Part shown: positions 27,950-64,000 of the stretch, piece by piece
How positions within the stretch are numbered: position 1 is the first letter of the stretch
Layout: each line of letters opens with the position of its first letter
Assembly (NCBI GenBank): GCA_964016885.1
Contig: OZ024748.1
Span: forward strand, 55,304,001 to 55,368,000
Direction of reading: 5' to 3'
Length of the DNA stretch: 64,000 nt
Source: Eledone cirrhosa
Taxonomy: Eukaryota
The notes under the pieces: model-generated
What the model was told of the DNA's origin: nothing
Seen by the model: the letters and a program-made list of their open reading frames with translations, nothing else
Databases searched by the model: none
Made by a program: the position numbers and the translations under genes

Positions 27950-29108
27950 ACTTAAACGAATGATCCGAAGACTTTTAAATATTTGCTTTGTCTATCTACG
28001 CACATCCTATAAATCTTTGGATTAATCTTTCTACTTTGAGCTTACTTCTTTGCAATTGTTATTTTACATGCTTCTATATTTTTAATTTTGGAAAATAATT
28101 CCTTTTTATTTGTTCTTGCCATTGCTTTTCATTCCCATTATATAACAATATGAGATTTGAAGCACATTTTCATTTCCTTGATTTTTAAGGCGGTGACATG
28201 GCAGAATCGTTAGACCGTCTCGTAAACTGCTTGCAATATTTGTTCCGGAACATTCTGACGTCATGGAAGTGTGTTCACAAGGAGTTTGACAGCTGTTGCT
28301 CATTTCTTTATGTGGTTAATCTTATTAAGATTTCTAATGCTAGAAATTGCATTTCTCTATACTTATAGATTCCATTTAATTCTTAAACATAACTAAATGG
28401 TCATTTTGTAGAATAATAAAATTTAAAATAAAACATCCAAATACTTCGATGGTTTTGAAATTACAACCCACAAATGTGTGAATTTCGAAACTTCATATAC
28501 ATGACTATATCTCTTCTATAAATTCATCTGAATACAAAACAATATATGATAGAAATAAAGAGAACCAGAACCCCCTCACCCGAAACGCTACAACAAATAC
28601 ACAGAAGTCAGGTTGTAAATCAACAAAGTAAAAAAATCGAATAAATTCAATTATATATATTAATATCGAACACTAATAAATAGAGGATAAATAAAATGAA
28701 GACATCCTAATATAAGTATAGATAAAGTGCTTCATTTGTATTTCTTTGCTTTCATAACAAGGAAAACAATCCGCCAAGACGTTTTTAACAAGTTGTAAAA
28801 TATCCTCTTTGACAGTTTACTTGTCTTCAGATGATATAAAGATGTTTCCCTCTGTTGAGAGTTGACGAAAACAAACCATTATTATTATTATTATTGAATG
28901 CCATGGTTGACGGAGGCTCGGCTCTGTAAGGTATAGTAATTTTTAACCGTTAAAACAATTGTAAATTGTTTAAAGCTTGAACCAAATTGTTGATAAAGAC
29001 ACCCTCCTCCTCGTGAGAGGGGTCTTTCTGTCCGTTATTTGGCCCTTCGGGGTTAAATAACCAGTTATTGGGGTTTTGTACCCAAAATTTCATTTTAAAC
29101 AAAAAAAC

Positions 29109-31205
29109 ATGGCTACCAAAAAGAAATTTCATACGTCACTCCCACTCATTCCGTCTTCTTCTTCCTCAATCATCACTACAGCAGAGAGAAGATTGTCTCT
29201 CTCCCTCCCTTCTTTAAATGTGTCTCTCTCCCTCCCTTCTCTTTCGCAAACAACGAAAGAAAAGAAAAGTCTCGTGCAAAGCGTGCAAGGTTTCTCCACG
29301 ACGACGACGACAGCGACGAAACAGGTGTGCGGGAAATACGAAAACCCAGTTCATTCGTCTGACGTCAGGAATAATAGCAGTAGCAGCCGTAATAACAACA
29401 GCAACAGTGACAATGAAAACAACAGTAGCAGCCGCAACAGCATCACCAGCAACATAAACAACAACAGCATTAGCAGCAGCAACACCAACAACAACCACAG
29501 CAACAGCGGCGGAGGCAGTAGTCGTAGTACCTGCAGCAACAACAAAAGTACCAGCAGCTCTGACGACAACAACAACAGCAGAGAAAAACCAATCTCATTT
29601 GCAGGTATTGCGAAAAACTTGGAAACAATCCTCATAACAAATGAGGAATTAGAGGAAGCGAAGAAGATGGTGACAAAGAACGGACACCGAGCAATCTGCA
29701 AGGCAGCGGAAAAGTTTTTCGAGACCCAAGAGCACTGTACGGTCACGTACCGTACAGTAAGTACAAAATCCCGTAGGGTGGAAAGAGCCACAGAGGCCCA
29801 AATACAAAAAGCCTTGGGGTCTGTGTGGCAGCGGAAAACGCACATCACCCGAGGCAAAAAATATGCCACCGTAGACGTACTTTTTGCCACACCCCAGGAG
29901 GCAAAGGCCCAATCAGTAGTGACCCTAAGGAGCGAGGAAATGGTGTTGGTGCCCTCCTACTGCGGGCAAAAAATTGTGAGGGTCAAACTGACCCACGTCC
30001 CCCCCGGAATGACCCCTTCTTGGCTGGCCGCGTCTGTCCTCGTCGGAATCGAGGACAAAACAACTGTACTGCAAGTACAGAAAAAAGTAAGAGAAGATTG
30101 GGTCGGCTCCTCCATTGAGATGCTAATCCAAACCAACCAGGAGTGCATCGAAGCTATCCCGGATGTGATAGACTTCGATAACGGCACTCAACTGCCCATA
30201 AGTGTTGAGGGCAAACGCCCGAAATGCTTTCGCTGTGGATCGAAGACTCACCTCAGGGCCTTCTGCAACGAGAATACCCTGAGAAAGGAGAAAGCCCCCC
30301 TCCTTCCGAATCCGGCTCCACGGCTACCAGCAACAGGACAAGCGGCAACCAGGAACGATAGGCCCGTGGCACCCATACCCACTCCACGGAAATCAAAAAC
30401 AGCAGCAGCAGTGGAAATACTAACAACAACAACAGCAATACCAAATGCAGCTGCAACAGAGACTCCAGTGCAAACATCACCAACAACAACAAGTGAAAGA
30501 GTGGAGCTGGTACCCCTCCCCGACCTCACAGAATCAGACATGGAGTGTGAGGTGGGAGAGGGATGGCAAAATGTCGTAAGAAGGCACAAACGCAGAAGCA
30601 GCGCATCGTCGCCTTTGAAAAGGGAGGAAAGAAATGAGAAAAGGGTAAAGTCTACTGCAAAGAGACCCACAGCAGCAACAACACCAACACCATCACCACC
30701 CACACTAGCACCACCATCACCACCGGCGACAACCCCACCGCCAACAACACCTTCAACACTACCACCACAAGCACCAACATCGCAAACACAACAACAAAAC
30801 ACACACACCCAGCAACAACGACAAGAAAATAGCAGAACCACACCCCACCCCCAGAAAAACAAATGCACGGCAATAAACACACACAACAAGAAACTAATGA
30901 CTTACATAATTGAACACACAGACATTTCACAACAGGACTACATAATACCAGCACCAATCAAAACGCCAACTAACATAAGACTGCTAAAAATAGCACAGAA
31001 ACAATACACAAACATTAAAACGAAATTCCCCAACGCAGTAGGTGATTTCAGGGACCTAGGAGGAACCATCAATCGAAGAGTATATTCAGACATTCTCTTA
31101 GAAGAGCCGACGACCAGCCGAAGGGACGATTCAACGGTCCCTTCACCAGACGATCAAGTGAAAAGGGATGTAAAAACCATCCCTCCTCTACCAAAAGTAC
31201 GGTAA
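29109..31205 (+). CDS. Tx1 ORF1, gag-like nucleic-acid-binding protein (698 aa from first ATG)
   Basis: Zinc knuckle CFRCGSKTHLRAFC (CX2CX4HX4C) with Asn/Ser- and Pro/Thr-rich low-complexity linkers. It lies directly upstream of ORF2. Confidence 0.88.
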   Translation: MATKKKFHTSLPLIPSSSSSIITTAERRLSLSLPSLNVSLSLPSLSQTTKEKKSLVQSVQGFSTTTTTATKQVCGKYENPVHSSDVRNNSSSSRNNNSNSDNENNSSSRNSITSNINNNSISSSNTNNNHSNSGGGSSRSTCSNNKSTSSSDDNNNSREKPISFAGIAKNLETILITNEELEEAKKMVTKNGHRAICKAAEKFFETQEHCTVTYRTVSTKSRRVERATEAQIQKALGSVWQRKTHITRGKKYATVDVLFATPQEAKAQSVVTLRSEEMVLVPSYCGQKIVRVKLTHVPPGMTPSWLAASVLVGIEDKTTVLQVQKKVREDWVGSSIEMLIQTNQECIEAIPDVIDFDNGTQLPISVEGKRPKCFRCGSKTHLRAFCNENTLRKEKAPLLPNPAPRLPATGQAATRNDRPVAPIPTPRKSKTAAAVEILTTTTAIPNAAATETPVQTSPTTTSERVELVPLPDLTESDMECEVGEGWQNVVRRHKRRSSASSPLKREERNEKRVKSTAKRPTAATTPTPSPPTLAPPSPPATTPPPTTPSTLPPQAPTSQTQQQNTHTQQQRQENSRTTPHPQKNKCTAINTHNKKLMTYIIEHTDISQQDYIIPAPIKTPTNIRLLKIAQKQYTNIKTKFPNAVGDFRDLGGTINRRVYSDILLEEPTTSRRDDSTVPSPDDQVKRDVKTIPPLPKVR

Positions 31206-61797: not shown

Positions 61798-64000
61798 TAT
61801 ATCTATCTATCTCTCAATTCTATCTATGTACCTCTCTGTCTATCTATCTATGGTTCAGGCATAAAAAAAAACGAAAATGATATATATATTCTTTTATGTT
61901 CTATCCCTGAACCACCATGACTTTCCTTGCATTTCGCCTTCTCTCCTACCCCCCCCCCCCCACTGAGATATGATTATATATTGATAAGAGTATTATATTG
62001 TATCTGTATTTAGAAAATGTCTCGTACATAACGTGAACATGCTCTAAAATATCTTGTAATACATTGCCTTTCTATACATTGTAATTGTCATTGTAAACAA
62101 GCCTTTAAGCCTTCCCATGATTCCACGACAGGCAACAATGTGAGAGGGATAATTGTTCAACAGAATACTACTGATATTGGATAACTTAAGACATTATATC
62201 TCTAGCATCATACGCGTAACGTTGATCACCAGAATCTTTATCAAATGTAAAAATAGTCCTATATTCAAAGCAGGAACATCAACTACAGGACCGTGGATCA
62301 TTTGGTTCCGGGCCACGGACCATTATGTAATATGAATGTTATTATTTATTGTTTTGTTAGGCAAGTGACCGACACTGACCCCTCTCAATCCATGGAGAAA
62401 TTGTCTTGTATGACATATGTGTAGACGTCTCCCAACTGGTTAGAAATATTAAGCCCCCCCCCCCATATATATGCTTGTATGTATGTGTCTATAATTATAT
62501 ATATATATATATACATATATATATATATATATATATATATTTATATATGTATGTAAAAGGTAAACAGAAATAACAACACAATCGGTACAGTATATGGAAG
62601 GGATATATTAGGTTAACGCTTGATATAGCAGGAAGAGGGTCTTAACATTTCGGACGCTCGATTTTCTGACTAAGCATGCACTCTTGCCCTATTTTCTTTG
62701 CTTGTACCATACAATCACAACTCACCCTATCACTTCATTACTACGATGTCTAACATCATGTATGTTTGGCATAATCTACGTCATGATTATTGAATTTCCC
62801 TAGCGCAGCATTTCAAATTGATTATAGAAAGGAAAGTAGACGCTCATCTGATCGAAACAAAGAAGCTATATTTACATTGGTATTACCATTCCCAATTATA
62901 TTTACCGGTGGCAACTTGGCAGAATGAGCAACATGAAAGAAAAAAATCTTACCCATGTAGACAAGGTGCAGAAAGAAAACCTACAACGTCTGAACATGAG
63001 TCCAACAACGTAACCACTAAGCCAAACGTGTTCACAAGTTATAATTCTGCTGAATTCCGCCAGTGCAGCATTTAAAACGGATTAACACTCCCCATTTATT
63101 AGATTAATCGAAATTAATATTATTTTATTGTCTGCCATTCACTTCCCAGCAATTCATCTTCTTAAATATTTGCATTGATTTATTTTATTTTATATTTTCT
63201 TTCATTTTTCATCTCCTTCAAATTTCTATTTGATTTCCTCGAATTCATGGATTATGGCGATATCCTTTGAATATCAATTGTATAAATCCTCTCAACGGTA
63301 TTATATCCTATTACTATCGATTTTTATCAAAGTTCTCCATGGCGTTTGTCATCTGTTAGATTCATATCTTTAAAACGGGTTTAATGTTGTTAAATTCTGT
63401 TAATAATTGTTTCTCTAAACTGTTTCAATGTTGTTCTAATCTGTTAATGTCCTATTTCTTCCGATTCACTCTTTTATTTATTTATTTCTATTGGAAAATC
63501 TCTCCCTATGGTGTACGGTATCAGTTTGATATCACAAAACAAATTATTTCTATTTGATTTGGGATATCTTTATTCGAAACGTGATCAAAAGCTTAAATTA
63601 GTGTTTAGTATGAATCTTCATACACATATATATATACAAAAGTATATATATATATATATATATATATCAAATATATATATATATATATGTGTGTGTCGGT
63701 ATGTTGGAGTGTGTATATATAATTGTATGTTGGGGTGTATATATATATATATATATATATGATTGTATGTTGGTGTGTGTATATATATATATATATATAT
63801 ATATATATATATATATATATATATATACACACACCAACATACAATCATATATATATGTGTGTGTGTATGCGTAGGCGTAGGCGTGTGTATGCATGCTAAG
63901 ATATATATACGTAAATATAAACATACCATGCATGAGTGGGTATATAAACACTATATCCACATACATATATACATATTACTTTCTCTCTATTACGAGTATT

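Follow-up and report, generated by a model that had tools for sequence, protein, structure and literature searches.

Two related groups of Tx1-like LINEs at ATT and TATC-type target sites in Eledone cirrhosa

Elements of the window

The stretch of Eledone cirrhosa DNA analysed here, called the window throughout, is 64,000 nt long (C8:55304001-55368000), and it contains an intact Tx1-like long interspersed nuclear element (LINE) bordered by ATT repeats and three truncated relatives bordered by TATC-type repeats (Table 1); genome-wide counts given below cover the whole 3.0-Gb assembly. The intact LINE belongs to family A1 of what is called here the ATT group and is 6,025 bp long (28896-34920, or up to 34922 when two element-borne bases are included). 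That it is flanked by (ATT)6 and (ATT)13, as the initial annotation had stated, was verified from the coordinates of the two tracts. Its second open reading frame (ORF2) has an N-terminal apurinic/apyrimidinic-type endonuclease (APE, PF03372), a central reverse transcriptase (RT, PF00078) and a C-terminal zinc finger (PF13966), all above cut-off, and a Pfam search of ORF1 gave no family above cut-off. 5'-truncation and target-site duplications of variable length are present, which are features of an APE-type retrotransposon without long terminal repeats (non-LTR) of the L1 group. The terminal motif TGTGG..AAT(A/G)AAGAAA, said at the outset to be the same in both groups, does occur in both and is found exactly four times in the window, at 34904, 61074, 61222 and 61781.

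Each of the three truncated copies has TATC-type sequence on both sides, as had been described, but they are stacked head-to-tail in one imperfect tract (60764-61850) and therefore the flanks are common to neighbouring copies and are not six independent observations. The ORF2 C-terminus, which had been taken to be colinear in all three, is so in copies 1 and 3 but copy 2 consists of 3' untranslated region (UTR) only. The three do not form one family either, since they were assigned to B6 (97%), B4 (95%) and B1 (89-95%). The closest genomic relatives of copy 3, among the best 40 of 2,920 candidates scored (the self-match and relatives), are 92-95% identical to it.

Table 1. Positions of the elements and of their parts in the window
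Feature	Position	Strand	Identity or basis
(ATT)6, 5' flank of full-length A1 element	28878..28895	+	sequence
Full-length Tx1-like LINE, family A1 (ATT group)	28896..34922	+	ORFs, domains, genome-wide 3'/5' end matches
ORF1, 698 aa, one CCHC zinc knuckle (aa 373-386)	29109..31205	+	
ORF2, 1,139 aa, open; APE, RT (aa 511-754), zf-RVT (aa 974-1026)	31241..34660	+	
APE domain of ORF2	31241..31960	+	catalytic residues kept, fold similar to L1 endonuclease
Segment aligned to betaB6-betaB5 hairpin of L1 endonuclease (T189-S200)	31805..31840	+	I194 in ATT families, S in TATC families
3' UTR, ending with common terminal motif and 2 element-borne bases	34661..34922	+	
(ATT)13, 3' flank of A1 element	34923..34961	+	
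Imperfect TATC/TGTC tract, 5' flank of copy 1	60764..60793	+	
5'-truncated copy 1, family B6; last 20 ORF2 codons and 3' UTR	60794..61090	+	97% to L171
Imperfect TATC tract common to copies 1 and 2	61092..61157	+	
5'-truncated copy 2, family B4; 3' UTR only	~61158..61238	+	95% to L168 over 81 nt
Imperfect TATC tract common to copies 2 and 3	61241..61299	+	
5'-truncated copy 3, family B1; ~85 C-terminal ORF2 codons and 3' UTR	~61300..61797	+	89% to reference used
Imperfect TATC tract, 3' flank of copy 3	61800..61850	+	
SINE-like matches (nine)	4731-4865, 8618-8735, 9385-9560, 15638-15772, 16667-16802, 23871-24056, 37871-38006, 39370-39423, 48902-49100		

Flanks and target sites of the two groups

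Family copies were counted by sequence-pattern matches over the assembly. The exact 33-base 3' end of family A gave 6,237 matches and its exact 31-base 5' end 1,564. When TATC-type ends were walked upstream, a second intact ORF2 was reached, that of family B2, which is 67% identical to that of family A, and thus a full-length copy of the TATC group, whose recovery the initial annotation had proposed as a check, is at hand. The exact B2 3' end had 1,401 matches, and for the B2 APE domain 150 of the 150 matches scored were 98-100% identical, most of them lying within an open frame of 1,156 codons. The near-identical B2 copies with open frames and the family A counts together indicate that there are young intact copies in both groups. 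The A-type 3' end was followed by ATTATTAT 7,421 times and by TATCTATC not once, whereas the B2 3' end was followed by TATCTATC 998 times and by ATTATTAT not once; as a positive control for gapped patterns, the B2 pattern with TATATATA gave 58 forward and 168 reverse rows. That both families might insert in either repeat, which had been named as an outcome that would overturn the idea of a switch, is thus contradicted by the absence of any crossover in the 3' junctions of A and B2. In 3' flanks ATTATTAT was found in 44/57 A copies, and TATCTATC in 24/45 and TATCT in 38/45 B2 copies. Kojima 2015 regards a Tx1 family as target-specific when the same target is present in more than 20% of flanks, and this share is exceeded in the 3' flanks of both A and B2 and in the 5' flanks of their truncated copies (8/23 and 5/12, respectively).

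At TC or TTC tracts only isolated copies were seen, which falls short of a (TC)n/(TTC)n target of the Kibi/Koshi type. The common terminal motif is followed by a non-T at tail positions 4-5 in 539 ends, the first 30 of which were decayed or off-target copies belonging to the families already described, or chance motifs, and no third major target was found in these first 30, pyrimidine-rich tails being outside the survey. Same-strand arrays within 7 kb included 38 of the first 100 listed A ends, and opposite-strand neighbour pairs numbered 0. Full-length A copies were observed head-to-tail at a spacing of about 6.05 kb (for example C1 55423680-55449643, 56169671-56181795 and 57085851-57098005), and B2 forms similar arrays with a spacing of about 5.8 kb. 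Several A-type ends (L139, L135, L140 and others) have a doubled terminal GAAA or CAAAA ahead of the tail, which suggests slippage when reverse transcription begins.

Both junctions were resolved for copies taken in coordinate order on C1. Ten copies were dropped as unresolved, chimeric, internally deleted or duplicate (L031, L034, L040, L058, L186, L192, L221, L234, L279 and L288), and L078, which is without the terminal motif, was left out of the B2/B1 duplication analysis. A 5' junction was scored positive when 8 nt or more of the repeat lay at it; as background, a stretch of this length is found within 8 nt of a random position in 0.4% of cases for ATT and in 0.1% for TATC (200-kb sample). 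By this score the group's own repeat was present at the 5' junction in 15/29 full-length and 5/12 truncated B2 copies, in 23/39 B1 copies, which were chosen by similarity to copy 3 of the window, and in 27/28 full-length and 8/23 truncated A copies. The repeat of the other group was found at none of these 5' junctions, and the excess of the own repeat over background has a p value below 1e-11 in truncated A, in truncated B2 and in B1.

In 28 of 57 B2 copies (41 in coordinate order and 16 chosen by APE identity) the target-site duplication includes non-repeat bases, and 21 of the 31 copies whose 3' flank turns impure within 14 nt have such an informative duplication. The lengths are 11-22 bp, with 24/28 at 16-20 bp. 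As these duplications copy non-repeat bases, the repeat was present before insertion, and so for B2 the repeats are targets and not just element-encoded tails, the other outcome that had been named as fatal. The register is exact: positions +1 to +3 are TAT, +5 is T and +7 is T in 28/28, +4 is C in 24 and A in 4, and upstream -2 is T in 26/28 and -1 is C in 24/28. The duplicated sites include some that are not microsatellites (L110, L210, L233 and L236), and this, together with the exact register, means that what the TATC group targets is a short motif and not the microsatellite itself. For B2 the recognised site is TC|TAT(C/A)T, which is densely supplied by (TATC)n. The B2 element gives two bases after the terminal motif and no repeat unit; since those two bases differ from the site in 10/28 and +4 follows the target, no repeat unit was added from the RNA there. 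In restriction-site-associated DNA sequencing (RAD-seq) of another sample, 83 reads leaving the B2 5' end, possibly from few loci, run into GATA-type repeat, in agreement with these junctions. The view that the repeats are microsatellite targets therefore holds as regards family-specific flanks but has to be narrowed for the TATC group, which reads a short motif and uses (TA)n at low frequency. Copies of both groups were also seen in minisatellites whose unit holds only the short motif, of ATTATA type or TCTATCTAT type (L057, L058, L233 and L234), where adjacent units show the uninterrupted site.

The junctions of the ATT group give weaker evidence. Informative duplications starting at ATTA were found in L257 (17 bp) and L044 (11 bp), and by eye in the A4 copy L175; those scored as informative in the full-length A copies L165 and L277 result from the first G of the element and were left out of the count. 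In L044, L177 and L267 the tail of the A copy passes into the local sequence a few bases on. In 16 family-A exceptions without 5' ATT no duplication of unique sequence beyond the tail was found, and the absence of 5' ATT from A copies is likely due to later deletion or to target loss at insertion. The 5' junction of full-length A copies is a fixed ATT|G in the same phase in 30/30 sampled exact 5' ends and in 25/28 of the junction set. At their 5' junctions (L079-L108, L249-L288) neither extra bases nor duplicated 3' impurities were observed, unlike in B2. Subfamilies of family A (L165, L166, L251-L253 and others) have the same 3' end and 94-97% ORF2 identity with two different 5' ends, for which replacement of the 5' UTR or of ORF1 is a possible origin.

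Non-LTR elements of two families lie on the opposite strand in the same ATT tract at 11/30 family A 3' ends, downstream of L032, L033, L034, L039, L049, L050, L055, L059 and L060 and of L036 and L053. Their translations contain an RT together with a zinc finger and the motif of a restriction-like endonuclease, and they look Dong/R4-like. Two unrelated clades thus appear to use the same ATT microsatellite in opposite orientations. An abundant SINE-like repeat (short interspersed nuclear element), with nine matches in the window, has an ATT-type tail that elsewhere is a landing site of family A. The window also has fragments resembling the C-termini of other LINE ORF2 proteins at 6446-6766 (-), 7170-7478 (+) and 38232-38900 (-), which are presumably RTE- or CR1-like; 7170-7475 gave only a weak DUF6451 match, below cut-off. 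A long imperfect CCA-rich repeat occupies 55071-56700, with an inverted part near 56580-56700.

Family relationships and the endonuclease

The closest named homolog is an Argonauta hians protein, 74% identical over 41% of the query, which would fit an octopod lineage. In its RT the element is closer to the proteins P0222 and P0278, whose "Transposon TX1" labels are automatic and not curated (277 and 192 bits, phmmer), than to human L1 ORF2 (118-120 bits). A CCHC zinc knuckle in ORF1 is a feature of the Tx1 clade; it is present in A1 at aa 373-386 and a matching motif is visible in the translation of B2 ORF1. A tree set of 22 copies and 12 database proteins was compared on the family A columns, and what had been called two sister families proved to be a wider radiation, with no fewer than three ATT families (A1, A2 and A4) and six TATC families (B1-B6). 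The TATC families are monophyletic, with ultrafast bootstrap (UFBoot) values of 100 for RT to C-terminus and 99 for APE, and since they form one clade one switch explains the pattern. In the best tree A4 is the sister of the TATC clade, so that TATC is nested in ATT (UFBoot 99 in one run and 72 in another), and ATT monophyly had a p value of 0.31 in the approximately unbiased test (p-AU, 2,000 replicates) and is thus compatible with the data. The direction from an ATT ancestor is not claimed because ATT monophyly was not rejected and the support for A4 falls to 72. The proposal of a switch between close relatives is upheld in that a single split parts all TATC from all ATT families, but A1 of the window is not the nearest relative of the TATC families in the best tree.

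In 35 APE sequences N10, D141, N143, D202 and H227 are invariant and E39 is at least 90% conserved. An AlphaFold2 model of the A1 APE (predicted local distance difference test, pLDDT, 93.8) has the L1 endonuclease (L1-EN) as its best structural match (E 2e-19, template modelling score, TM, 0.81-0.84), with residues 189-200 aligned to the betaB6-betaB5 hairpin, whose loop anchors in L1-EN are T192/S202 (PMC1950540); the ESM Atlas gave only generic APE-RT clusters. The hairpin was surveyed in 88 APE domains tied to a downstream 3' end (27 ATT, 57 TATC and 4 unclassified), which are mostly B2 or A1 copies and hence not 88 independent events. As proposed at the outset, the predicted recognition loops were compared, and their cores differ, being RIG in ATT and (R/H)SG in TATC copies. 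The core is RIG in 23/27 ATT copies (of the others two are misaligned rows and two have one change), S is never found at 194, and TNRIGSS is nearly invariant across A1, A2 and A4. TATC copies have xN(R/H)SG(T/Q)S, with S at 194 in 55/57 and never I. Fixed differences on the switch split number 14/240 in APE and 21/899 in the rest of ORF2 (p 0.01), and grafting of the betaB6-betaB5 loop has been reported to alter L1-EN nicking (PMC1950540).

Explanations and comparison with known systems

The best explanation, to which we give a probability of roughly 70%, is that there are two related groups of Tx1-like LINEs which insert by target-primed reverse transcription (TPRT) from a nick made by an APE that changed its sequence preference a single time. 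From the sequences compared, the APE endonuclease would be the cause of the switch. TPRT would be primed from a nick in the bottom strand that coincides with the start of the duplication or lies no more than three bases from it; for B2, where +4 follows the target, the nick would fall between that start and +3. Should the TATC group be nicked one base inside the duplication, the step cut would be T-A in both groups (AAT^AA versus GAT^AG) and the switch would be a small one. Each new copy would leave target on either side, into which later ones could insert head-to-tail, and priming may be aided by a short RNA tail. A fuller scheme is possible but on the whole doubtful, namely that the lineage was moved from AAT^AA to GAT^AG by one or a few APE changes around the tip of the hairpin (I194S), that both specificities are mobile in the same genome today with hundreds of intact copies each, and that the two groups complete integration in different ways, the TATC group with classical 16-20 bp duplications and full-length ATT copies by homology through an ATT leader carried on the RNA. 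If true, the I194S-centred shift would be a near-minimal natural recipe to retarget a LINE endonuclease.

Several observations weigh against a single change of nicking preference. Although no copy lies in (TA)n within the window, as was noted initially, B2 copies are found in (TA)n genome-wide at about 115 distinct sites, an estimate lower than the number of rows because reverse matches are listed up to three times. However, TATATATA is about 180 times commoner than TATCTATC (200-kb evenly spaced sample) and holds about one tenth as many B2 copies, from which the per-site preference for TATCTATC is of the order of a thousandfold. At the B2 locus L110 one public contig spans the filled junction and the empty allele was not seen there, which weighs neither way. 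By the script rule, both 5' ATT of 8 nt and an informative duplication are missing in 13/23 truncated A copies, and a duplication was found in 0/6 full-length A copies with an impure 3' site compared to 13/18 for B2, the A copies being older. The 5' ATT on full-length A may be partly RNA-borne and joined by homology, and the fixed ATT|G together with the 0/6 means that it is not independent proof of targeting. As regards the endonuclease, I194S is one change on one branch among the 14 diagnostic APE columns of the switch split. APE is equally enriched on a split within the same target, A1+A2 versus A4 (odds ratio 2.4, p 0.0001), and therefore its excess on the switch split proves nothing alone. 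It has also been reported that loop flexibility may outweigh loop sequence and that specificity is not modular (PMC1950540).

Some of the same observations would also be expected if the endonuclease had only a loose specificity in either group and the site were set by pairing of the nicked strand with a short RNA tail, (AUU) or (UAUC), in which case the 3' end of the RNA would be the seat of the switch. Such a tail would pair on the side of the nick that holds the invariant positions +1 to +3, +5 and +7, the copies in tandem arrays would give read-through RNA with repeat tails, RNA-target pairing has been named as a possible extra filter (PMC1950540), and the 5' junctions of full-length A look homology-joined. 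Yet there are no extra repeat units at the short sites L110, L210 and L236, mismatch is tolerated at +4, and the preference at -2/-1 lies beyond the nick, though only 3/4 clearly non-repeat sites show it. Between families with only 65-88% ORF2 identity the APE hairpin still goes with the target. We consider pairing by the RNA tail the main alternative but an unlikely source of the switch.

That the repeats are element-encoded tails and insertion is approximately random, the 5' repeats coming from chance landing in each other's tails, would agree with the many truncated A and B1 copies that have no repeat at the 5' junction and with the possibility that full-length A carries 5' ATT. It is very improbable and already largely refuted, because duplications start at the motif and copy non-repeat bases (28 in B2 and 3 in the ATT group), because 3' tails turn to local (ACT)n, (CTT)n or (TC)n after 2-5 bases, and because the 16 family-A exceptions are without the unique duplication that an element-borne tail would leave. 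Broad insertion with survival only in harmless microsatellites, as suggested for Drosophila Waldo-A/B near CA repeats (PMC3812793), is nearly excluded too and is just as remote: the register is base-exact, the motif is family-specific, crossover is zero, the far commoner TATATATA holds the fewer B2 copies, and the pattern is already present in copies that are 99% identical.

How LINE APE endonucleases gain or change specificity is unsettled, and loop grafts between distant enzymes altered specificities in an unpredictable manner (PMC1950540). Here two specificities occur in ORF2 proteins with an identity of about 67%, the single switch is flanked by no fewer than nine families, both sides have intact copies, and the motifs are defined by thousands of insertions. 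Together these narrow the candidates to the 14 diagnostic APE residues and make a natural test pair in which a swap is straightforward. LINE landing sites number several thousand among the ATT and TATC microsatellites of this genome, which matters when markers are designed or active elements are counted in octopus-like genomes.

Dong-R4 elements have a C-terminal restriction-like endonuclease, whereas a review places Dong among the APE types. Dong, a TAA-repeat-specific non-LTR element of Bombyx, Anopheles and Biomphalaria (PMC3812793), uses the same microsatellite as the ATT group but belongs to a different clade and has the opposite orientation. The human L1-EN and the Tx1L/R1Bm loop grafts (PDB 1vyb, 2v0r and 2v0s) have the same fold, catalytic residues and hairpin position; compared to human L1, the elements described here have an ORF1 with a zinc knuckle, no poly(A) tail and an RT nearer to the TX1-labelled proteins. 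Thirteen recently active L1-Tx1 families have been reported in O. vulgaris (PMC13282606) and an L1-Tx1 expansion in coleoids (PMC8967140); as far as their descriptions go, target specificity is not mentioned, and the word 'target' does not occur in the main text of PMC13282606. In titles and the beginnings of abstracts no report of ATT- or TATC-specific Tx1 elements, or of target-specific Tx1 elements in cephalopods, was found, and Repbase Reports may already list them. The concept is not new, as the initial annotation had stated for Kibi at TC and Koshi at TTC, and as PMC4494074 confirms: Kibi and Koshi of teleosts and the crocodilian Tx1-1_Crp, Tx1-5_Crp and their relatives are microsatellite-specific, with the units (TC)n, (TTC)n, (TTCC)n and (TTTC)n. 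Compared by description only, these are, like the elements here, APE elements of the Tx1 clade in microsatellites whose related families differ in the unit, whereas here the targets are (ATT)n and TATC-type and both groups are young and intact in one genome. The novelty lies in the two targets as a pair, in the host lineage and in the presence of two young intact specificities side by side.

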